Positions 669 to 56,514 of a DNA stretch of 64,000 nt are shown piece after piece. The notes beneath the pieces were generated by a model that saw only the letters and a list, made by a program, of their open reading frames with translations, was not told the origin of the DNA and ran no database searches. A program made the translations under genes and the position numbers. Position 1 is the first letter of the stretch. Each line of letters begins with the position of its first letter. The DNA comes from Candidatus Vogelbacteria bacterium (GTDB taxonomy: Bacteria > Patescibacteriota > Minisyncoccia > Phycocordibacterales > XYD1-FULL-46-19), in assembly GCA_021414225.1 (NCBI GenBank), contig JAIOOX010000002.1, positions 25,113 through 89,112 of the forward strand, written 5' to 3'.

Positions 669-3635
669 ATGTCAGATCTAGACTATAAATTCACTGAAGA
701 ATATAAGCGTTTAAATACTCACCAAAAGGAGGCGGTGGACACTATTGAAGGTCCGGTGATGGTGGTGGCTGGTCCAGGGACAGGTAAAACTCAAATTTTA
801 ACCTTACGCATTGCCAATATTCTCAAACAAACCGATACCGCCCCGGCTAATATTTTAGCCTTAACCTTTACTGAAAGCGCGGCGGCCAATATGCGGAAAC
901 GTTTAGCGACTATTGTTGGTAGTCGAGCCTACCAGGTGGTGATTAGTACTTTTCATGGTTTTTGTAATGACGTGATCAAAAATTATCCAGAAGAATTCCC
1001 GCGAATTATTGGTTCGACTAATATTACGGAGATTGATCAAATAAAAATCATCGAAGAGTTACTGAACAAGTTGCCGTTGAAAATTTTGCGACCATTTGGT
1101 GATCCGCTGTTGTATGTGAAGCCAATCTTGTCATCGATTAATGAATTAAAACGAGAAGGTTTGAGTCCAGCTGAGTTTACTCAGATTGTGGTTAAAAAAG
1201 ATAAATCGTTTGATCAAATTCCTGACTTGCGCCACGAGAAAGGAGCTCATAAAGGTAAAGTGAAATCAATGTACGAAAAGTTGCGTCGGCAGATTGATAA
1301 AAATTTGGAATTGGCCGACGTTTATGCTGGTTACGAAGCGGAACTGACTAAACGTAAATTTTATGATTACAGTGACATGATCATGGAAGTGTTGCGGGAA
1401 TTGCGAACCAATCAGACTTTGCTCTCTAGTCTCCAAGAAGAACATCAATACATTTTGGTGGATGAACATCAAGATACCAACAATGCCCAAAATAAAGTCT
1501 TGGAATTAATCGCTAGCTTTCATGACTATCCCAACTTGTTTGTGGTGGGGGACGAAAAGCAAGCTGTCTTTCGTTTTCAGGGAGCATCGCTAGAAAATTT
1601 TTATTATTTCAAACACCGTTTTCCAGAAGCTAAATTAATAGTCTTGGAAGATAATTACCGTTCGACACAGGCGATTCTTGACCAGGCTCATTCACTGCTA
1701 CCTGGTCAGGCGGAGTTGAAGGCTAACACGGGTCACTTAGCCGAATCTATCAAAGTAGCTGTCTGTTCGTCGCCCTTATCGGAGTTGTATTTTGTGGCTT
1801 CGTCCGTCAAATATCAGATTGCGTCCGGGGTTGAGCCGTCAGAGATAGCTGTTTTGTATCGAGACAATCGAGACGCTTTTCCTATTGCTAACGTACTTGA
1901 TAAATTGGGGGTGTCTTGTGTGATTGAATCTGATGACAATTTACTCGCCGATATTGATATTCGGAAGTTGCTGATTTTATTTAAAGCTATTTATTATTTT
2001 GATAATGATGAAGCTTTGGCTCAAGCTCTACATTTAGACTTCTTGGGAGTAGAACCAATTGACGCTTATGGTTTGATCAGACAAGCTAGTCAATCAAAAC
2101 AATCTTTGATTTCTTTGGTAGGCGGAAAGTTTCCAACCTTAGCCAAACAACTGTCCGATTGGAATGTGGCGAGCCATAATTTGGAATTACTACCACTCGT
2201 GGAGAAAGTTTTGAAAGAATCAAAGTTGCTAGACAGGCTAGTCACCAGCAGTACGGCTCGAAAACGGCTAGAGACCATTGGTGCTTTATTTAATACTATG
2301 TCTGATTTGGTGGCGAGCCATCCGGAAGCGGGGCTAGAAGATTTCCTCGAATTTATCGAAACGGTCAACAAACATCAAGTGTTATTGAAAAATAAAAGTC
2401 GAGCAAGTGTGGTTGGCAAGGTACGCCTGATGACTGTCCATCGGTCCAAAGGTTTGGAGTTTCAATCGGTCTTTATTATTGGCGCTTATGACGGTCACTT
2501 TGGTGGTCGGAGTAGTCGCGACAAATTGAAGTTATTGTCCGAAATATATCAGTTGGTTGATAGAGACAAAGAAGGGGGTGAAGAGGACGACAAAGATACT
2601 GGTGATGAACGACGCTTGTTTTATGTAGCCTTAACTAGAGCTAAGCAATTGGTCACCATTAGTTTGTCGGCGATTAGTGATAGTGGTCGTGAACAGGTGC
2701 CAAGTCAGTTTATTGCCGAACTGAAGCCTGAGTTAATAGAATATGTTGATACAAGTGGTTTGACTGACAAGTTAGCTGAAGTTCGAGAAACTTTGCTTAG
2801 CCCGACTCCAGCCAAGGAGAGTGACCTAAAGGATCGGGAATATATTGCTGGTTTGTTTCGTGATCAGGGTTTGTCGGTCACAGCTTTAAATAACTACCTG
2901 GCTTGTCCATGGCAATACTTTTATCGTAATCTCATTCGTTTGCCAGCGGTGCCGACCAAGCATCAGGCTTATGGTATTGCGGTTCACGCGGCCCTCAGAG
3001 ACGCCTTCAAGCATGCCAAGGAGCGAGATATTACCAAAGAGTCACTCTTGGCTAGTTTTGAGAAGTATCTTCGTCAGGAGCCGTTAACGGAAAAGGATTT
3101 GGTGGAGACCTTGGCAAAAGGTTTGGAATCACTTAGTGGGTGGTTTGATACTTATCACCAAAGTTGGAATATTAATGTGTTGACCGAGTTTAATATTAAA
3201 GGAGTGGAGTTAACTTCAGATATTAAATTGGTGGGAATGCTCGATAAAATAGAGTTTACAGGGGATGGTGCTGATGTAAATGTAGCAGATTATAAAACTG
3301 GCAAGCCAAAAAGCCGGAATGATTTGATGGGCGCGACTCGTGATGCGGATGGAAATTATTACCGCCAGTTGGTGTTTTATAAAATCCTGTTAGATTTATT
3401 TGAGGATGGAAAGTATAAGATGATGTCTGGGGAAATAGATTTCGTGGAGCCAAATGATACGGGGAAGTATAAAAAAGAAAAGTTTGAGATTCCAGATAAT
3501 GATGTGATTGAATTGACTGATACGATTAAAAAAGTGGCGGATGAAATTATTAATCTAAAGTTTTGGGATAAAACTTGTGATGATAAGGATTGTGAATACT
3601 GTGCCTTGCGACGGCTAATGACAGACGCTAACTAA
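669..3635 (+). CDS. ATP-dependent DNA helicase / nuclease fusion: UvrD-REP superfamily 1 helicase (N-terminal) plus a RecB/AddB/Cas4-like PD-(D/E)xK nuclease with a Cys cluster (C-terminal)
   Basis: Walker A GPGTGKT near the N-terminus, UvrD-like motifs (VDEHQDTN, TVHRSKGLEF, VALTRA). C-terminal D...IEF...DYKTGK...YYRQLVFY nuclease core flanked by CPWQY and CDDKDCEYC cysteines. Confidence 0.8.
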   Translation: MSDLDYKFTEEYKRLNTHQKEAVDTIEGPVMVVAGPGTGKTQILTLRIANILKQTDTAPANILALTFTESAAANMRKRLATIVGSRAYQVVISTFHGFCNDVIKNYPEEFPRIIGSTNITEIDQIKIIEELLNKLPLKILRPFGDPLLYVKPILSSINELKREGLSPAEFTQIVVKKDKSFDQIPDLRHEKGAHKGKVKSMYEKLRRQIDKNLELADVYAGYEAELTKRKFYDYSDMIMEVLRELRTNQTLLSSLQEEHQYILVDEHQDTNNAQNKVLELIASFHDYPNLFVVGDEKQAVFRFQGASLENFYYFKHRFPEAKLIVLEDNYRSTQAILDQAHSLLPGQAELKANTGHLAESIKVAVCSSPLSELYFVASSVKYQIASGVEPSEIAVLYRDNRDAFPIANVLDKLGVSCVIESDDNLLADIDIRKLLILFKAIYYFDNDEALAQALHLDFLGVEPIDAYGLIRQASQSKQSLISLVGGKFPTLAKQLSDWNVASHNLELLPLVEKVLKESKLLDRLVTSSTARKRLETIGALFNTMSDLVASHPEAGLEDFLEFIETVNKHQVLLKNKSRASVVGKVRLMTVHRSKGLEFQSVFIIGAYDGHFGGRSSRDKLKLLSEIYQLVDRDKEGGEEDDKDTGDERRLFYVALTRAKQLVTISLSAISDSGREQVPSQFIAELKPELIEYVDTSGLTDKLAEVRETLLSPTPAKESDLKDREYIAGLFRDQGLSVTALNNYLACPWQYFYRNLIRLPAVPTKHQAYGIAVHAALRDAFKHAKERDITKESLLASFEKYLRQEPLTEKDLVETLAKGLESLSGWFDTYHQSWNINVLTEFNIKGVELTSDIKLVGMLDKIEFTGDGADVNVADYKTGKPKSRNDLMGATRDADGNYYRQLVFYKILLDLFEDGKYKMMSGEIDFVEPNDTGKYKKEKFEIPDNDVIELTDTIKKVADEIINLKFWDKTCDDKDCEYCALRRLMTDAN

Positions 3636-3722
3636 AGCAATTTTGGAGCACGGATATTTTCTTGCTAGAAAATTCCTCAAGTCTCGATCCGTCGATCTTC
3701 CGAAGTCTCCAAAATTGCTTTA
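3633..3722 (+). repeat. Family 1 structured intergenic element, copy A
   Basis: Core gagcacggata...ttgcta...cctcaagtctcg...cgaagtctc enclosed by the inverted arms taaagcaattttggag / ctccaaaattgcttta. Starts at the helicase stop codon. Second copy at 9932..10035. Confidence 0.6.
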
Positions 3723-3750
3723 GTTTGCTTAACTTAAAAAATAAAAAAAC

Positions 3751-3801
3751 AAAACCCGCCCCACGAACGCAAGGCGGGAATCGTCTTGGTTGCGGGCGGG
3801 G
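3751..3801. terminator. Compound GC-rich hairpins (aaaacccgcccc...ggcggg...gcgggcggggtt)
   Basis: Nested inverted repeats between the converging helicase gene and the 3802..4140 gene. Confidence 0.45.
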
Positions 3802-4140
3802 TTAGGTGATTGGTTTAGGGATTCTTCTTTTCCCTGTCTGCTTCACCATATCGAGTATCACTTCCCAGGTGTACAGATCATTTGTGTGCTGAACGCCGTG
3901 CTCAAGCCTCTCAAGGGCCCTTAGCTGATTCACATTTTCTTGCGGAAAGTGATCCAGTTCGGCTTTTAAGATGCGTGCATCTCGGGCCAGGTCAGCTTTT
4001 TCTCTTTCTAGCTTCTCCAAACGTTTCGCCCGTTTGGCGACTTGTTCGTTCTTCGCTTCCTTGAGAATCAGACACAATAACAGCATACAGGTGACCATAA
4101 CGCCGAGGCAGATGGTGATAATCACTTCCGGAGTGCTCAT
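3802..4140 (-). CDS. Hypothetical membrane-anchored coiled-coil protein (N-terminal TM helix, charged heptad-like segment). GC-richer than its neighbours.
   Basis: 112-aa ORF. Hydrophobic N-terminus VIITICLGVMVTCMLLLCLIL followed by KRAKRLEKLEREKADLARDARILKAELD. Confidence 0.45.
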   Translation of the reverse strand: MSTPEVIITICLGVMVTCMLLLCLILKEAKNEQVAKRAKRLEKLEREKADLARDARILKAELDHFPQENVNQLRALERLEHGVQHTNDLYTWEVILDMVKQTGKRRIPKPIT

Positions 4141-4241
4141 ATGAGACCTCTCTTTTTGTTCAGGTTTATAATTATAAAATTGGCCACATAGCCAATCTAT
4201 CTAATCATTATTATGACATATATTTATATAAAATGCAAGTT

Positions 4242-5426
4242 CTATCGAGTATCTTTGAGAGTAAGACTTGGATAGAGACCTAAAAGTGTCACAACACCTA
4301 GAGCGAAGAATATGGTTTGGTAGTTGTCGGTGTTAAGGAAAATTAAAGCAAAAGCTGGGGCGGCTATATAAGCTAAAGGTGAAAGGTTTCTCGAGAAGCT
4401 AAGGATGGGGGCGTCGTTCCCGTCAATTCGTTTGAAAAGAGCTGTTTCTTTCATAATCTCGATGGTGGCGGCACCCACTCGAGTTAGAAAAAGTAGCCCT
4501 GCCCAGAGCCACATATATTTCGTCTGCAAAGTTGATATTAAAATAGTGGCGACACCGGCAATCATAAAGCCAGTCGCCAAGAGTTCTCGTTCACCCAACC
4601 ACTTGTCGGCTATTTTACCGAGTGGGTATTCAATGATAACAAATGGAATTAACATGATGGTGAAAATAAAACCGATTTCTGTCCAAGAAAAACCAATTTG
4701 TTCATGAAGGAGTAGTGGTAAATAAATCACCATGACTGCGTAGAAGAAGTTTAGTAAAAAATCGGTTGTGAGAATTTTGCGAAGAGCTCGATCTTTGGCG
4801 GTGTTTAATTTGCCCAATCGGGCCAATAGGTCTTGGATGGTGCTGGTTGGGTCACACACTGTTCGTTCGGGTAAAACCTTACCAATAATGATCATGAAAG
4901 GCACCATTAAAATCGCGGAAATAAAATACAATAAATAAAATCTTTCGGTTGGACCCAAGATGGTGCTAGCAATGATAGGAGAAGCGAGCCAAGCTAGGTT
5001 GATGATAGTCATAAAGACGCCACGGATACCACCAGTGTCTTTGTTGTCAGAGATTGTTTCTAGATAAAGATCGGTGTTATAACGGGCGACTTGAGTGAGG
5101 GCGTAGTAGGAGATAAAACCCAAGATCGAAAATAAAACCAGAGGGGATTGCCAGACAATGAGGAGTAGTCCACCAATACTGAGGCTGGAAATAATAACGG
5201 TTGATAATTTGATTCCTAGTCGACACAGGATCTTAGGTATTAGTAGGGTTAAAATAATCGTAGTAATAGAGCCTAAACTATAAATTAACCCAACTTTATT
5301 TTCGGGTACTAAAGTAGCTAAATAGGAGGAGTTGATGTAGGAAGTCAGAGAAGCGGTCAGAGTTAAAAAAAAGACCGCTACATAGGTGATAATGCGAAGT
5401 TGTTTGGCTGAAGCGTTTACGAGCAT
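4242..5426 (-). CDS. MFS-type transporter (about 12 TM helices)
   Basis: 394-aa highly hydrophobic protein with the alternating TM / short-loop organisation typical of the major facilitator superfamily. Confidence 0.6.
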   Translation of the reverse strand: MLVNASAKQLRIITYVAVFFLTLTASLTSYINSSYLATLVPENKVGLIYSLGSITTIILTLLIPKILCRLGIKLSTVIISSLSIGGLLLIVWQSPLVLFSILGFISYYALTQVARYNTDLYLETISDNKDTGGIRGVFMTIINLAWLASPIIASTILGPTERFYLLYFISAILMVPFMIIIGKVLPERTVCDPTSTIQDLLARLGKLNTAKDRALRKILTTDFLLNFFYAVMVIYLPLLLHEQIGFSWTEIGFIFTIMLIPFVIIEYPLGKIADKWLGERELLATGFMIAGVATILISTLQTKYMWLWAGLLFLTRVGAATIEIMKETALFKRIDGNDAPILSFSRNLSPLAYIAAPAFALIFLNTDNYQTIFFALGVVTLLGLYPSLTLKDTR

Positions 5427-5454
5427 GGGTTAATTATACTGGAAGAGTGGTAAT

Positions 5455-5483
5455 TTAAAAACCCGCCGATCGGCGGGTTTTTA
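5455..5483. terminator. Bidirectional intrinsic terminator aaaaacccgccgatcggcgggttttt
   Basis: Perfect GC stem flanked by an A tract and a T tract. Lies downstream of the RNase J gene. Confidence 0.7.
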
Positions 5484-5485
5484 AA

Positions 5486-7381
5486 TTAAACTTCAATTAA
5501 GACAGGAAGAATGATTGGTCGTTTGTGAGTTTTTTGGAAGAGGTATCTACCCAAGTCTTCTCGAACGGAATTTTTGAGATAATCAAAATTAATTGGGTGC
5601 ATTTTACTGGTGGCGTCTTCAATTGTTTTTTTAGTTAAGCCACGAACTTGGTGAAGGAGATCTTGAGATTCTTTTAGATAAACAAAGCCACGAGAAATAA
5701 TGTCTGGTGATTTGCGAACCTTACCAGTTTTTACATCAATAATGGCGATGACCACAAACATACCGTCTTGTGACAAGACCTGTCGATCACGAATGACTAC
5801 TTCTTGAACATTGTCGTTGCCTAAACCGTCAACCATTACTAAGCGACTAGAAGCTGTTTCCTTGCGAGGGATCATTTTGGTTCCACCTTCAATGATTTCT
5901 ACAATCATGCCGTTGTCTGGTACAACAATATTTTTCTCAGGCATACCTAGTGAAATGGCTAAATCTTCGTGAACGCGCAACATGTAATGACTGCCGTGTA
6001 CTGGCATGAAGAACTTCGGCTTAATCATTTTGTGAATCCAGGCCATTTCACCACTGTAAGAGTGGCCAGATGAGTGGACGTTGGCGATACCATAGTGAAT
6101 GATCTTAGCTCCAAGGCGAGCTAAGTTGTCTTTCAATCGATCAACACTTTTTTCATTACCAGGAATAACAGATGAAGATAGTAAGACAGTGTCTCCCTTT
6201 TTCAATTTGAAAGTACGGTGTTCTTTATTGGAGATACGCATTAAAGCAGCAAACTCGTCACCTTGAGCGCCGGTAGCCAAGACTACTAGACGATCGTCGG
6301 GATAATCCCCAATACTTTCTGAGGGGATAATAGTATCTTTGTTTACTTTAAGAATACCGAGTTCTTTAGCGATCTCGATATTATTTTTCATCGAACGTCC
6401 TTCGACGGCGACTTTTTTGCCCAATTCTTCAGCGGACTGAACAACTGAGATGATGCGATCAAATAAAGAAGCAAAAGTCCCAATAACTATTCGGCCGGGC
6501 ACGTTGCGGATGATTTCTTTTAGGTTGGCGTGGACTTCTTTTTCTGGATAAGAGAATCCTTCCTTGGTGACGTTTGTGGAATCAGCGATAAGGAGTAGAT
6601 TATTTTCCGCTCCGAGTTTAGTGTAGGTATCAATCTCAAATTGAGCTGGAACACCATCCTTATTTTCGATTTTTAAATCGCCAGTGAAAATGACATTACC
6701 ATAAGGGGTTTCGACGATGACACCAAAACAGTCAGGAATAGTGTGAGTGGCCCCGAAGAAACGAATCTTAAGGTCTCCTAGTTGCAAACTCTCATGTTTT
6801 TCCACCAAACGAATATCTAGTTTGGGTAGATAAGGAAATTCTTCTTGACGCTTCTTAATCATAACTGAGGTCAATAGAGAAGTATAAAGTGGCGGATTGC
6901 CGAGTTTTGGCATGACATAAGGGATACCCCCGATGTGGTCAAGGTGGCCGTGAGTAATAATAACCGCTTTGATTTTGTGTTTATTATCTTCAACGTAAGT
7001 AGAGTCAGGAATAATGTAATCAATACCAGGAGTTTCTTCGCCAGGGAAAGCTAGACCGATGTCGATCACTAAAATGGTGTTATCAAATTCGATTGCGGTC
7101 ATATTCTTACCGATTTCTTCTACCCCTCCAAGAGGAATAACCCGGATAACACCCGGGTCAATTGGTGGAATAATTTGTTTTTGACGATTATCGCTTTTCT
7201 CACCACCATCACCACTGTTGTGGGGTTGGCTATTACCGAAAGGTCGACGACGTGGGCCACCTGGTCGAGAGTTAGGTGGGCGTCTGGTTGGTCGACGATT
7301 GCCGGCTGGTTTTGGTTTATTGGTGTCAGGACTTGGGACGGTGGCCGGAACTGCTGTTTGGTTGCTATCTGTTGTTTCCAT
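5486..7381 (-). CDS. rnj: Ribonuclease J (metallo-beta-lactamase / beta-CASP family) with a roughly 75-aa Pro/Arg/Gly-rich N-terminal extension
   Basis: HGHLDHIGG motif, beta-CASP region, C-terminal RNase J domain. N-terminus PATVPSPDTNKPKPAGNRRPTRRPPNSRPGGPRRRP is low-complexity and basic. Confidence 0.85.
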   Translation of the reverse strand: METTDSNQTAVPATVPSPDTNKPKPAGNRRPTRRPPNSRPGGPRRRPFGNSQPHNSGDGGEKSDNRQKQIIPPIDPGVIRVIPLGGVEEIGKNMTAIEFDNTILVIDIGLAFPGEETPGIDYIIPDSTYVEDNKHKIKAVIITHGHLDHIGGIPYVMPKLGNPPLYTSLLTSVMIKKRQEEFPYLPKLDIRLVEKHESLQLGDLKIRFFGATHTIPDCFGVIVETPYGNVIFTGDLKIENKDGVPAQFEIDTYTKLGAENNLLLIADSTNVTKEGFSYPEKEVHANLKEIIRNVPGRIVIGTFASLFDRIISVVQSAEELGKKVAVEGRSMKNNIEIAKELGILKVNKDTIIPSESIGDYPDDRLVVLATGAQGDEFAALMRISNKEHRTFKLKKGDTVLLSSSVIPGNEKSVDRLKDNLARLGAKIIHYGIANVHSSGHSYSGEMAWIHKMIKPKFFMPVHGSHYMLRVHEDLAISLGMPEKNIVVPDNGMIVEIIEGGTKMIPRKETASSRLVMVDGLGNDNVQEVVIRDRQVLSQDGMFVVIAIIDVKTGKVRKSPDIISRGFVYLKESQDLLHQVRGLTKKTIEDATSKMHPINFDYLKNSVREDLGRYLFQKTHKRPIILPVLIEV

Positions 7382-9627: not shown

Positions 9628-9930
9628 ATGAAAGGAATCAACATTAAGCCGTTAGGTGACCGAGTGTTGGTCTTACCTGAACGGGAAGAAAAGAATACAA
9701 CTAAATCAGGGATTATTATCCCAGATACTATTGATAAAGAACGTCCGGAACAGGGAACGGTTATAGCTGTCGGTGATGGCTGGTTTACCGAAGATGGTGA
9801 CTTGGTGCCATTGCGGATCAAGAAAGGTCAAACTGTTTTATTCTCTAAATATGGGCCTGACGAAATTAAATTTGAAGGTAAAGAATATTTTATTATTAAA
9901 GAGTCGAATATATTAGCAATAATCGAGTAG
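9628..9930 (+). CDS. groES: Co-chaperonin GroES
   Basis: MKGINIKPLGDRVLVLPEREEKNTTKSGIIIPDT...VIAVGDG. Confidence 0.9.
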   Translation: MKGINIKPLGDRVLVLPEREEKNTTKSGIIIPDTIDKERPEQGTVIAVGDGWFTEDGDLVPLRIKKGQTVLFSKYGPDEIKFEGKEYFIIKESNILAIIE

Positions 9931-9931
9931 G

Positions 9932-10035
9932 GCGCTCGCTTAGATTTTAAATTAGAGCACGGATAAACTTTTGCTAAAGTTTTCCTCAGTCTCGGCTACC
10001 CGCCTGCGAAGTCTCTAATTTAAAACTAAGCTCGC
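9932..10035 (+). repeat. Family 1 structured intergenic element, copy B, in the groES-groEL spacer
   Basis: Same core as copy A (gagcacggata, hairpin with loop ttgcta, cctcagtctcg, cgaagtctc). Different but again self-complementary outer arms gcgctcgcttagattttaaattagag / ctctaatttaaaactaagctcgc. Confidence 0.6.
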
Positions 10036-10062
10036 TTAATTCTTAAATATCCGTAAATACCT

Positions 10063-11703
10063 ATGGCTAAAAATGTAATTTTTAATGAAGAAGCTCGTCG
10101 CTCGCTGAAAGCGGGAATTGATAAGTTGTCACTAGCGGTCAAAATGACCCTCGGTCCTCGAGGTCGAGCAGTAGTGATTGAAAAAGCTTATGGCGCACCA
10201 CAAGTCACTCTTGATGGTGTGACAGTGGCTAAGGAAATTGAATTTGAAGATCGATTTGAAAATCTAGGGGCTAGTTTGATCAAACAGGCAGCTGATAAAA
10301 CTAACGATAATGTGGGTGATGGTACTACCACTTCCATTATCTTAGCTCAAGCTTTAATTGAAGAAGGAGAAAAAGCGGTTAGTGAAAGGGGAATGAATGT
10401 GATTCATTTAGCTGATGAGATTAAGCGTGGTGGTGAAGCGATCATTGCCGCCTTAGAAGATCAAGCTGAAGAAGTGAAAGATAATAAAATAAAAGAAGTA
10501 GCTACTTTGTCAGCCAAGGATGCGGAAATTGGGGAGTTGATTGCCGATGTTTTCAAAACTGTCGGTGAAGAAGCGGTGATTACGATCGAAGATTCCAACA
10601 CAGTATCTAACTCTTCTGAGGTGGTGGAGGGGATGCAATTTGATAAGGGTTATATTGCACCCTACATGGTGACTAACATGGAGAAAATGGAAGCGGAATA
10701 TACTGATCCGTACATCTTGATTACCGATAAGAAAATTTCTTCGATTAAAGAAATTTTGCCTTTGCTGGAAAAATTAGCTCAAAGTGGTAAAAAAGAATTA
10801 GTCATTATTGCTGAAGATGTTGATGGTGAAGCTTTGACTACTTTGATTGTCAACAAAGTGAGAGGTATTTTCAATGGCTTGGCGATTAAGGCGCCTGGGT
10901 TTGGTGACCGTCGCAAAGAAATGTTGGAAGATATTGCGGTTGTCACTGGCGGTCAAGTGATTTCAGAAACGGTGGGCTTGAAGTTGGAAGCGATCGAAGT
11001 ATCGATGTTGGGCCGTGCTCGACGGATTATTTCTAGTAAAGACAATACTATTATTGTTGGTGGTAAAGGCAAGAAAGCTGATATTGAATCTCGAGTGGCT
11101 CAATTAAAACAGGCGATTGATCGAACAGAGTCAAAATATGATAAAGATAAATTGAAAGAACGATTAGGTAAACTCTCTGGTGGAGTGGCGGTGATCAAAG
11201 TCGGTGCCCCAACCGAGTCAGCGCAAAAAGAATTGAAGCAACGTGTTGAAGATGCGGTCGCGGCTACTCGAGCGGCGATGGAAGAAGGAGTGGTGCCGGG
11301 TGGTGGTATTGCCTTGTTTAATTCCTACTCAGCCCTCGATAGTATTAAAACCAAAGATGAAGCTGGACAATATGCACTCGAAATATTACGTAAAGTAGTT
11401 TACGCGCCAATCACGGCTATTATTGAAAATAGTGGGGAGACTAGCTCGGTAATTTTGGAAGAATTAAAAACCAAAAAAGACGAAGTGAAAGGTAAGACTG
11501 ACAAGTTGTGGTTGGGTTTCAATGCTCGTACTAATACAATTGAAGATCTGAAGAAGGTTGGGATTGTTGATCCGTTGAAAGTGACTAAGACTGCTTTCAC
11601 TAATGCTATTTCGGTGGCGACTAATTATCTAACTATTGGGGTGGCTATTACTGACATTCCTAAAGAAGAAAAAACTGCTGGTCCGGGAGGAATGGATTAT
11701 TAA
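10063..11703 (+). CDS. groEL: Chaperonin GroEL
   Basis: 546 aa, canonical GroEL sequence throughout, C-terminal GGM-type tail (GPGGMDY). Confidence 0.95.
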
Positions 11704-12653: not shown

Positions 12654-12692
12654 AAACCACCACCTTGGCCCTAGGGCCAAGGTGGTGGTTTT
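12654..12692 (+). terminator. Intrinsic terminator aaaccaccaccttggccctagggccaaggtggtggtttt
   Basis: 16-bp perfect stem plus T tract. Confidence 0.75.
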
Positions 12693-21901: not shown

Positions 21902-21913
21902 AAGGCGATCGCC

Positions 21914-22062
21914 TAATTGTTTTTCAAACCACAGAAAACCACCCCAGCGGGTGGTTTTCTTCTGCTTCACGTCGGCTATTTTGCCTTACTGGAGTACCAG
22001 CCTAAAACCATGAGGCAAAAACCGGCTAGCCGACAGTTACGCAGGGGTTTGAAAAACAATTA
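21914..22062 (+). repeat. Family 2 structured intergenic element, copy 1, directly after the nrdJ stop
   Basis: About 150 nt bounded by the perfect 16-nt inverted repeat taattgtttttcaaacc / ggtttgaaaaacaatta. The roughly 115-nt core, including the internal hairpin aaaaccaccccagcgggtggtttt, is about 95% identical to the reverse complement of 37657..37809. Confidence 0.7.
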
Positions 22063-22085
22063 GGCTCACTTAGATCTGGAAATAC

Positions 22086-22116: not shown

Positions 22117-22122
22117 TGTTTG

Positions 22123-22564
22123 GATTGTTGTCGATAAGCCGAATTCTGTACCGATTTTGCCCACCACAGGGGACGCAAAATCGAGTACTCTGAGTTTATC
22201 GAAGAGTGGCCTTTCGACTAGCTCAAGGTGCTCAATTTTGTAATTACCTGCGGTGAACAAAATTGGCGATAGTTATTTATCTGGGATGAATATTACTATT
22301 CACCTCGAGCGGCACAAACCATTGGTAAACCAATGGAGTACGGCCTTGCACACACGTAAGGATTTAGCCGTTTCAGCCAAGTGTTGCCACCTGACAACTC
22401 CAGTCAGACTGGAGCCCTAGCCTTTCGGCGTTGGCGTTTCTGTTCGCACCTCGATCCTTGCGGACGACGGGTGTTACCCGCTACGCTTCCTGTTTACACA
22501 GGTATGTGTTCGGACTTTCCTCCGAGCACTATAAATAGTGCTCGGCAACTATCTGACAACAATC
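22123..22564 (-). ncRNA. rnpB: RNase P RNA (bacterial type A-like)
   Basis: On the minus strand: P1 pairing gattgttgtc / gacaacaatc at the two ends, P3 hairpin gagcactatttatagtgctc, universal P4 strands GAGGAAAGUCCGAAC (rc of 22511..22524) and ACAGAAUUCGGCUUAUC (rc of 22134..22150). The ORF-track ORFs at 22066..22260 and 22381..22581 fall inside it. Confidence 0.8.
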
Positions 22565-25107: not shown

Positions 25108-25130
25108 TTAGATTATAGAGGTGGGTATAT

Positions 25131-36618: not shown

Positions 36619-36628
36619 CTAATTAAAT

Positions 36629-36663
36629 AAAAAATCCCAGAGTCAGACTCTGGGATTTTTTAT
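36629..36663. terminator. Bidirectional intrinsic terminator aaaaaatcccagagtcagactctgggattttttat
   Basis: Perfect 10-bp stem flanked by an A tract and a T tract, between tRNA-Val (+) and the trxB 3' end (-). Confidence 0.75.
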
Positions 36664-36668
36664 TTAGA

Positions 36669-42872: not shown

Positions 42873-43027
42873 GGGACTATTCCATTGTATAATTCGTTCG
42901 CCATGATCTGTTCGAAAAAATGCGCATAAATTTCTGGTGAAATTTTGCTATACTCGGCCCAGTCGGCCAGCGAAATATTTTTCTCACAGACATAGCTCAT
43001 TCAACCCGTTTTAAATTCTTAATTTTC

Positions 43028-55521: not shown

Positions 55522-55737
55522 CTTCTTTTCTCCTGGTTTTTGCCCTTAAGCAAACACCTTTTTGTTTGTTTCCAATCAACTGTCAACGACCTTTCAATAT
55601 CTCTACAGCAGGGGATAATAGCCCCAACTGAGTATCTTTACTTCCACTCTCTATTATATCAGGTTTTATGAAAAAGTCAAGGGGTCTTAAATAACAAAAT
55701 ACCCCTGAGAATTAGGGGGATTTTACTACAAATCCAG

Positions 55738-55866
55738 GCGAGGGGAGACTCGCCCGCGACTAAATTTTTTGTCGACACAAAAAATTTGTCTGGGCACCAC
55801 CTCGGCCCCAAACTCTGCTGAGTCTGGACTGCGTGGCCTCCGGTGTTCGAGTCTCCCCTCGCCCCT
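55738..55866 (-). repeat. Family 3 tRNA-spacer repeat, copy a, bounded by the 15-nt perfect inverted repeat gcgaggggagactcg / cgagtctcccctcgc derived from the tRNA-Leu(TAG) 3' end
   Basis: Contains the AT-rich hairpin aaattttttgt-cgac-acaaaaaattt and the conserved segment tctgggcaccacctcggcccc...ctggactgcgtggcctccggtgttcgagtc, homologous to 56330..56412 and more loosely to 56040..56115. Confidence 0.6.
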
Positions 55867-55913
55867 ACAAAATAAAAAGCCCCAAAGCTATCGCTTTGAG
55901 ACTTAATATTTTG

Positions 55914-55995
55914 TGAGCGAGGGGAGACTCGAACTCCCAACCCGTGAGGGACTAGTTCCTAAGACTAGCGCGTATACCAATTCCGCCACTCGCCC
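55914..55995 (-). tRNA. tRNA-Leu (anticodon TAG), type II
   Basis: Minus-strand read GGGCGAGTGGCGGAATTGGTATACGCGCTAGTCTTAGGAACTAGTCCCTCACGGGTTGGGAGTTCGAGTCTCCCCTCGCTC. Anticodon loop ctTAGga, long variable arm. Confidence 0.8.
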
Positions 55996-56023
55996 GATGT
56001 TTTGTTGTGAGAAATTCGGTCAC

Positions 56024-56166
56024 AAATAATTTTGCTGTGCAAAATTTTCGCGACCCCGCCTCGGTCACAGTCTTCGACTGGCTTTGCGACCTGTGGCTTT
56101 CGAATCCCTCACAGGGACTACCAAACAATATTCATTCAATATTTTATATTGAATTCATTTGTTTGG
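56024..56166 (-). repeat. Family 3 tRNA-spacer repeat, copy b, plus an 88-nt near-perfect palindrome (56098..56185) that runs into the tRNA-Lys 3' half
   Basis: ttcgaatccctcacaggg (56098..56115) is the exact inverted copy of the tRNA-Lys T-arm / acceptor 3' strand at 56168..56185. The spacer between them, actaccaaacaatattcattcaatatttt | atattgaattcatttgtttggtg, is itself palindromic. Confidence 0.6.
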
Positions 56167-56239
56167 TGCCCTGTGAGGGATTCGAACCCCCGACCATCTC
56201 CTTAAGAGGGAGTTGCTCTACCAACTGAGCTAACAGGGC
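56167..56239 (-). tRNA. tRNA-Lys (anticodon CTT)
   Basis: Minus-strand read GCCCTGTTAGCTCAGTTGGTAGAGCAACTCCCTCTTAAGGAGATGGTCGGGGGTTCGAATCCCTCACAGGGCA. Anticodon loop ctCTTaa. Confidence 0.8.
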
Positions 56240-56290
56240 AATTGTAGGATTATAGTTTATTTGAGGGGGAAATTCAATTTTATAACCAAG

Positions 56291-56433
56291 TAAGTTGGGA
56301 CTCTCCTTTGACTTAAAATTTTCTACCCGAAAATTTTAGTCTAGGCACCGCCTCGCGCCGAAATGTTGCTACATTTCGACTTCGTGCGCTCCGGCGTTCG
56401 AGTCCCACCCAAAATTTAACTTTGTTAAATTTG
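56291..56433 (-). repeat. Family 3 tRNA-spacer repeat, copy c, ending in an inverted copy (ttcgagtcccaccc) of the tRNA-Leu(TAA) T arm
   Basis: AT-rich hairpin gacttaaaatttt-ctacccg-aaaattttagtc, then tctaggcaccgcctcgcgccg...cgacttcgtgcgctccggcgttcgagtcccaccc, about 75% identical to copy a, then palindrome aaaatttaac-tttg-ttaaattt. Confidence 0.6.
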
Positions 56434-56514
56434 TGCCCGGGGTGGGACTCGAACCCACAAGGCTTGCGCCACACGATTTTAAGTCGTGCGTGTATACCAT
56501 TCCACCACCCGGGC
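56434..56514 (-). tRNA. tRNA-Leu (anticodon TAA), type II
   Basis: Minus-strand read GCCCGGGTGGTGGAATGGTATACACGCACGACTTAAAATCGTGTGGCGCAAGCCTTGTGGGTTCGAGTCCCACCCCGGGCA. Anticodon loop ctTAAaa. Confidence 0.8.

Follow-up and report, generated by a model that had tools for sequence, protein, structure and literature searches.

A dispersed palindromic repeat with a conserved three-way junction and copy-specific stems in genomes of Patescibacteria

We analysed a 64,000-nucleotide stretch of DNA from Candidatus Vogelbacteria bacterium (contig JAIOOX010000002.1 of assembly GCA_021414225.1, forward-strand positions 25,113 to 89,112; hereafter the window, with positions counted from its first letter) and describe a repeated element consisting of a 61-64-nt three-way junction that caps a long, copy-specific stem of 15-50 bp. 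Three copies of the element and one member of a related, longer family lie in these 64 kb. The reading that we favour, with about even confidence, is that of a non-coding, non-autonomous, dispersed structured palindromic repeat, gained and lost between genomes and specific to Patescibacteria. By lifestyle its closest counterparts are the repetitive extragenic palindromic (REP) and REPIN sequences and the miniature inverted-repeat transposable elements (MITEs), and by geometry the attC sites of integrons; it lacks defining features of each of these. To our knowledge, few known genomes are as reduced as those of the candidate phyla radiation (CPR), or Patescibacteria, and little has been charted of their mobile DNA or non-coding RNA. 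No published description of the element was found in the literature, including in a search with the literal core sequence.

Two copies of a common core closed by unrelated arms

The first-pass annotation, made from the letters of the window, had reported two copies of a common core, one at the end of a helicase gene and one at the end of groES. Both were present: the pattern GAGCACGGAT-N-CCTCA(N)GTCTCG had exactly two matches in the window, against 0.00 expected from 100 shuffles. Copy A, delimited as a whole hairpin by inverted-repeat search and folding, spans 3627..3728 on the plus strand and scored 90.8 bits with R1, a covariance model of the family. Copy B occupies 9938..10031 (+) in the groES-groEL spacer and scored 85.5 bits. 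Both regions were much more stable than their shuffles, that of copy A folding at -40.3 kcal/mol (z -7.5) and that of copy B at -40.5 kcal/mol (z -4.3). The two share a core of 61-64 nt and are closed by arms that are unrelated to each other and self-complementary in each. As had been claimed, the inner hairpin likewise differs between the two copies and is complementary in both.

In copy A the arms (3627-3645 and 3710-3728, +; 22 nt and 95% complementary in the inverted-repeat search) enclose the core at 3646-3709. On the plus strand this core consists of the closing strand GAG-C-AC (3646-3651), helix P2 (3652-3676) with GGA, a bulged T at 3655, a 7-bp stem and the loop TGCT at 3663-3666, the junction strand TCAAGTCTCG (3677-3686), helix P3 with the sequence ATC-CGTC-GAT (3687-3696) and a second conserved strand, CTTCCGAAGT (3697-3706), followed by CTC (3707-3709). 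The core of copy B (9955-10015, +) is bounded by arms at 9938-9954 and 10016-10031. Since the groES stop codon TAG lies at 9928-9930, 7 nt 5' of the arm, and groEL starts at 10063, the structured spacer that had been reported between the two genes indeed measures 132 nt. A third copy, copy C (42906..42991, +; 37 bits and E 7e-8 with R1), belongs to a divergent subfamily and is located where a signal-peptidase gene (-) and pth (+) diverge, between their start codons. It keeps the three-helix layout, and its stems are compensated.

The general anatomy of the element was taken from a MAFFT alignment of 39 copies (A1), with divergent members inspected too, and its parts are named on the strand that reads GAGCAC. 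P1, the long stem, closes on the junction through GAG-(bulged C)-AC paired with GU-CUC. P2 comprises GGA/UCC, a bulged U, a 7-bp stem and a UGNU loop, and the conserved strand UCAAGUCUCG lies 3' of it. P3 has 2-3 bp and a loop of CGUC or UACCC, is extended by UCG/CGA, and is followed by the conserved strand YUGCGAAG. A segment of the core that had been marked as variable proved to be this small covarying hairpin. Next to the core, the 5' strand of the arm is nearly always a T-run and its 3' strand an A-run. A second tier is present in many copies, where an inner stem of about 15 bp leads to a conserved 6x6 internal loop (CTTTCTC/TCAACGAG) and a further outer stem, the whole arm reaching at most 50 bp. 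Arms of different copies share only the proximal T-run and A-run, plus this internal loop in one subgroup.

A few copies, at numbered loci (L) of the genome scan described below, carry insertions of 60-70 nt in P3 (L007, L028, L036, L008 and L044 6495-6646). In three of these places (L007 7680-7812, L028 594-751, L044 6495-6646) we observed a conserved insertion of about 70 nt (..CTTACAG..CTGTAYACCTTTCGC..CTCAAGGTCTTGCGAAATGAT..) that repeats junction-like motifs of the core, which suggests nested or partly duplicated elements.

Covariation of the helices and the folding strand

Covariation was assessed over the 27 modelled base pairs in 52 sequences, in an alignment that was fitted to the model, and compared with 500 shuffles. 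Standard pairs filled 95% of the cells, compared with 70% in shuffles; all 27 pairs showed changes on both sides, and the observed values were reached by none of the 500 shuffles on any measure. Pairing fell to 44-61% when partners were slid by 1-3 columns, and RNAalifold recovered the same helices as the model from the MAFFT alignment A1. Such strong covariation indicates that a folded single strand is under selection. The first-pass annotation was to be abandoned if there were neither further copies nor covariation; many copies were found, and every pair was doubly changed.

The same data bear on the question of the folding strand. Cells without a Watson-Crick pair on the GAGCAC strand, the one assumed in the first-pass annotation, were A.C in 42 cases and G.U in 8 (41 and 12 over full arms). 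These A.C mismatches are spread over many positions, two of them recurrent, and become G.U wobbles on the reverse complement, so the wobble-tolerant strand is antisense to the gene at whose stop codon the element sits. Consensus folding energy was also lower for the reverse complement (-35.6 kcal/mol) than for the GAGCAC strand (-30.7 kcal/mol). A promoter for the antisense strand was not found, the consensus scan detecting no candidate at copy A and no convincing one at copy B. Because wobble pairs and energy both favour the reverse complement, the proposal that the element acts as an RNA within the helicase and groESL transcripts is unsupported.

Structurally, the element joins a compact three-way junction, in which the unpaired nucleotides are invariant, to helices that covary, and the stems and insertions at its periphery vary. 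Such a structure could also belong to a novel self-cleaving ribozyme, or to another catalytic or RNA-mobile module riding on a selfish repeat as hammerheads do on retrozymes and satellites. A multi-copy, selfish-looking distribution would fit this, and the wobble-favoured strand is the one less often found in sense with neighbouring genes, which would be expected of an active RNA that is harmful in messages. We consider a ribozyme very unlikely, given that no similarity to Rfam ribozymes was obtained on either strand at E up to 10, that neither the hammerhead core CUGANGA...GAAA nor other ribozyme cores were seen by eye on either strand, and that no reverse transcriptase was seen near the copies.

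Distribution among genomes

Scanning species-representative genomes with an exact pattern (21 exact nt) returned 52 loci. Of these, 41 loci with 42 copies had a pattern length of 40-41 nt and came from 17 metagenome-assembled genomes (MAGs), with at most 6 copies per MAG. Most of the 17 are labelled Saccharibacteria, Parcubacteria, Paceibacterota, Minisyncoccia, Zambryskiibacteriota or 'Patescibacteria group', and three only 'bacterium'. The remaining 11 loci were G+C-rich chance matches from other phyla, with different spacing and without similarity. R1 added about 11 divergent copies within the scanned loci. By the source names of its best helicase and GroEL matches, the window itself comes from a Vogelbacteria-like Parcubacterium. 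Phage and plasmid collections searched by BLAST contained nothing similar to the element, and pattern scans of IMG/VR gave chance matches only, none of which was confirmed by R1.

Cores of 63 nt that are 100% identical and flanked by unrelated perfect arms were found at L010, L022, L038 and L044, in MAGs labelled Saccharibacteria, Parcubacteria and Zambryskiibacteriota. A change of stem at a conserved junction could reflect either core replacement or accelerated evolution of the stem.

Gain, loss and persistence at orthologous sites

At the helicase site, the window was compared with a relative, L133, which is 97.6% identical to it on both sides. There, 31 nt replace window positions 3623..4242, a strain-specific block that holds copy A, a terminator (3755-3778, -) and a 112-aa open reading frame (ORF; 3802-4140, -). 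The difference is either a gain in the window or a loss in L133. The helicase ends in LMT* in L133 and in LMTDAN*, three codons longer, in the window; DAN* is encoded only in the block absent from L133, and the inserted DNA therefore supplies the helicase stop codon. Placement at stop codons had been emphasized from the start: the stop does lie inside the 5' arm of copy A (TAA, 3633-3635) and just before that of copy B, but at the helicase the exact fit is a signature of insertion, the gene having been extended relative to L133. Arms that are inverted copies of the native gene end were excluded for copy A, whose coding part DAN* is absent from relatives. Insertion into the loop of a pre-existing terminator was unsupported, a separate downstream terminator being kept in L137 and at copy A.

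Other relatives differ at this site as well. L138 has a copy of the divergent subfamily, L137 a member of the longer related family, and L134 a terminator only. Downstream of RNase J, a main-type copy lies directly 3' of the stop codon in L137, and the window has only a terminator. The 112-aa ORF showed only marginal similarity to the ORF at the same place in L134. The 31 nt of L133 (12955-12985) resemble the 5' arm of the different element in L138 (TAGAAAATTTAGATTAGATTTTTGGAG and TAGAAAATTTAAGTTAGTTTCTTTCG, respectively). On this resemblance, L133 may keep a remnant of another family member at the helicase site.

The groES-groEL site is more often empty than filled in relatives: none of 80 metagenome loci (GroES 60-82% identical) has the element there, and among the 28 best of them spacers are mostly 1-30 nt, the longer ones holding other hairpin elements. 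L141 and L142 encode an identical GroEL protein, with a spacer of 129 nt containing the element in the former and of 26 nt without it in the latter. Upstream of the site (L141 2871-2994, L142 1353-1373) the two contigs share 99.85% identity, and downstream of it 96.7%. This shift in identity coincides with the filled/empty difference and thus places the element at a recombination breakpoint. L140, whose GroEL is 97% identical, carries a divergent-subfamily core at the same place. When the window is aligned with L139 (84% nucleotide identity) and L141 (76%), the alignment runs through the element, with arms about 70-85% alike by our count, and the P2 stems of the window and L139 differ in 4 of 7 pairs, all compensated.

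Several spacers between these genes harbour different structures. In two relatives (L053 392-491 and L076 about 1014-1105) we noted another hairpin family with the core tttttcgcgCTTTACCCT..GGGCTCCGAC..aaaaa and differing arms. Unrelated long hairpins or repeats occupy the spacer in L055, L060, L062, L066 and L079.

Identical cores in unrelated arms, considered with the apparently orthologous groES-groEL copies, indicate long residence combined with horizontal or inter-copy exchange of cores. The first-pass annotation had opposed a selected RNA to a mobile repeat. This opposition did not hold, the element being dispersed, multi-copy and present or absent between close relatives.

Position, orientation and flanks

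A sense ORF of at least 80 codons ends within 60 nt 5' of the core in 24 of 44 copies, and the mirror arrangement occurs in 6. By crude nearest-ORF calls, the four possible gene arrangements were about equally common. Spacer sites include groES-groEL and rpe-tkt; at the rpe-tkt and kinase-aldolase sites, the element has opposite orientations in related genomes. Orientation showed no bias relative to local GC skew (19 to 16, a weak proxy on 8-kb pieces). TT is enriched at positions +1 and +2 after the 3' arm (65% and 51%), and besides it no conserved flank or target motif was found. The longest direct repeat across the hairpin ends averaged 4.53 nt, the same as in mismatched-pair controls (4.53 nt). 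Copy B is flanked by a 9-bp direct repeat, GCTCGCTTA (9934-9942 and 10030-10038), and other copies have no such repeat; the empty spacer of L142 contains one sequence (GCTCGCCTA) similar to it. Clustering of neighbouring ORFs of at least 90 aa at 41 loci yielded only syntenic housekeeping genes.

These positions raise the possibility of a cis-acting RNA useful to its host in 3' untranslated regions and operon spacers, whose junction would bind a conserved CPR protein or direct an RNase, and whose stem would protect or separate messages such as groES and groEL. The excess of copies lying sense-downstream of the stop codon of a long ORF would be expected of such an RNA, as would the two T residues enriched directly 3' of the hairpin. 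Every groES-groEL copy seen (window, L139, L141, L041 and L036) is sense-oriented, L043 being at a contig end with only the groEL side, and the junction strands of the window and L139 copies differ, by eye, by two one-base indels only, in flanks that are 84% identical. Wobble pairs and consensus energy favour the opposite strand, however, and copies also occupy divergent promoter regions (copy C, L002 and L017). Antisense copies exist, as in L042 compared with L006 at the same rpe-tkt site. The element must also be dispensable, because the orthologous sites of most relatives lack it, and the sharing of identical cores by several CPR classes is more easily explained by transfer than by descent. 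Weighing both sides, we regard a host-useful RNA as a serious but rather unlikely explanation.

The geometry raises another alternative, a folded-DNA recombination site of the attC kind, in which the hairpin would be extruded from the strand antisense to the upstream gene and be cut and joined by a recombinase that moves or swaps adjacent DNA. Like attC, the element is a hairpin whose shape is conserved and whose sequence varies; it lies next to the stop codon of the ORF upstream or overlaps it, has conserved bulged bases, and pairs better on the strand that is the bottom one for that ORF. Furthermore, in both of the two near-identical strain pairs (window/L133 and L141/L142) it borders a segment that is swapped or variable. 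Unlike in attC, the tip is conserved and the base of the stem is variable, and no R''/R' core sites (RYYYAAC...GTTRRRY) are shared at the stem base, as judged by eye with the outside flanks tabulated by position. The copies are single and dispersed among housekeeping genes rather than arranged in cassette arrays, and no integrase was seen in the neighbourhoods examined. An attC-like site is accordingly highly improbable in our assessment.

Comparison with known RNA families, terminators and mobile elements

Comparison with Rfam, which the first-pass annotation had called for, matched the element to no family: Rfam 15, which covers all described self-cleaving ribozymes and some motifs derived from CPR, gave no hit to it at the gathering score across the whole window. 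At E up to 5-10, copies A and B, the full-length L036 copy and the long family met only generic long-hairpin models of microRNAs and small RNAs, far below threshold. Several specific candidates were also set aside. ARAGORN found just 11 ordinary transfer RNAs (tRNAs), which removes a tRNA-like structure. A CIRCE operator, suggested by the groESL context, was excluded by the presence of the element at many unrelated genes. A retron non-coding RNA, suggested by long flanking repeats and AGC after the stem, was excluded by multiple copies with no reverse transcriptase nearby.

From its position after stop codons, the T-run and A-run around the core and the TT enrichment after the 3' arm, one might suppose that the element amounts to no more than an elaborate intrinsic terminator, or to a fragile palindrome of a generic kind, and that its core has no specific function. 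The helicase gene, moreover, has no other plus-strand terminator, the hairpin at 3755-3778 serving the minus strand. By the criterion of a short G+C-rich stem with a U-tract, however, the intrinsic-terminator consensus scan called neither copy A nor copy B, which leans towards the earlier view that this is no simple terminator. Sense-oriented placement inside the groESL operon, seen in several genomes, argues against strong termination, and termination would leave unexplained a three-way junction that is invariant across CPR classes. We find this explanation scarcely credible.

REP sequences are short, non-coding and multi-copy, occur in extragenic transcribed DNA at the 3' ends of genes and within operons, and form compensated hairpins without target-site duplication that may lie a few bases from a stop codon; they are mobilised by RAYT transposases. 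The element resembles REP, BIME and REPIN sequences in being a small, multi-copy, non-coding, compensated hairpin, extragenic at gene 3' ends and in operon spacers, without target-site duplication. In REP sequences, however, the arms are conserved and the tip varies, whereas here conservation falls on the tip, the three-way junction, and each copy has arms of its own. A REP family is also species-specific, whereas here the core is identical across CPR classes. No recurrent transposase-like or RAYT-like neighbour was found at the 41 loci, whole genomes not having been searched for RAYT.

MITEs such as Correia/NEMIS, ERIC, RUP and Nezha are comparable in size (about 100-170 nt) and, like the element, non-coding, multi-copy, dispersed, polymorphic between relatives, near gene ends and able to form a long hairpin. 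Their terminal inverted repeats are uniform among copies and they make target-site duplications; here the distal arms lack conservation and duplications are not a general feature, so that the earlier judgement that this is not a classical MITE stands.

Palindrome-associated elements derived from IS200/IS605, which move as single strands by 'peel and paste', share with the element the lack of target-site duplication, a bulged-T hairpin as a possible recognition feature and a strand-specific fold. They differ in having paired similar subterminal hairpins, a conserved flank tetranucleotide and a GC-skew bias, none of which was seen here, and no TnpA (Y1 HUH) was found at the loci. The intervening sequences of ribosomal RNA, which are excised by RNase III, are likewise long near-perfect stems inserted in transcribed DNA; those, however, sit in ribosomal RNA helices and have no conserved junction core.

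Related elements and other hairpins in the window

A longer element of the same general architecture at 21911..22065 (+) has 20-nt perfect copy-specific arms, AC, an AGAAA...UUUCU hairpin and a large third arm, and folds at -81 kcal/mol (z -10.7). Its homologue at L137 6497-6650 has other arms, begins with GAGCAC and lies exactly after the helicase stop codon. The longer family and the main family probably form one superfamily.

Relative to the Rfam model, the nearby RNase P RNA gene (22119-22564) contains about 93 inserted nt at 22132-22224 (-). The form of this insertion, aaaauuGAGCAC-[hairpin]-GUACUCgauuuu, has the same frame of T-run and A-run arms and of GAG-C-AC with GU-CUC (GAGCAC...GUACUC); R1 did not score it as a family member.

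At 55700-56460 (-), a small hairpin lies downstream of each of three tRNA genes (Leu-taa, Lys and Leu-tag). It is followed by an inverted copy, 15-21 nt long, of the T-loop and 3' acceptor end of the respective tRNA, and then by a conserved module of 60-100 nt (..CCGGAG.GCAC.AAGTCGAAA...CGAGGCGG.GCC..AGAC). Elsewhere in the window, perfect palindromes of 19-21 nt with A-run and T-run flanks at gene ends (5451-5488, 12654-12691 and 36624-36666) look like ordinary bidirectional terminators unrelated to the family.

Discussion

We favour the view that the element is a dispersed structured repeat that comes and goes in genomes of Patescibacteria. A folded single strand, which could be extruded or single-stranded DNA or an RNA copy, would mediate its spread or exchange at the DNA level, and the invariant junction with its bulged-U hairpin would serve as recognition site for an enzyme acting in trans. 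Copies would survive mainly where a streamlined genome tolerates them, directly after stop codons and in short spacers. Once resident, a copy would be transcribed with its neighbours, its long stem probably acting as a hairpin for 3'-end or intercistronic processing and stabilisation, as REP sequences do in E. coli.

Several points weigh against this view. The signals for the acting strand conflict, position favouring sense and wobble pairs and folding energy favouring antisense. No transposase, recombinase or reverse transcriptase was found near copies at the 41 loci, and the direct-repeat test at the hairpin ends revealed no general target-site duplication, so that mobility is proposed without a demonstrated mechanism. 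The groES-groEL site appears to be orthologous in the window, L139 and L141, genomes of 76-85% nucleotide identity. Between the window and L139 the junction strands differ, by eye, in no more than two one-base indels, which points to selection acting on resident copies and is not predicted for a purely selfish element. The sample of loci is skewed by the 21-nt exact pattern, and the class assignments are MAG labels, with binning taken as given.

It is also conceivable, though distinctly unlikely, that the invariant junction is the active part of an undescribed system. This might be a self-cleaving or self-processing RNA, or the recognition module of a hairpin-tip mobile element that exchanges cores at persistent palindromic sites and marks recombination breakpoints in streamlined CPR genomes.

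Two broad possibilities stand: a genomic parasite that has been successful, or a functional nucleic-acid structure of wide occurrence. R1 provides a concrete model for annotating genomes of Patescibacteria, in which the element accounts for unusual structured spacers and for genes with short C-terminal extensions, and marks sites of insertion, deletion or recombination between strains. If the junction turns out to be catalytic or a recombinase site, it would represent a new class.

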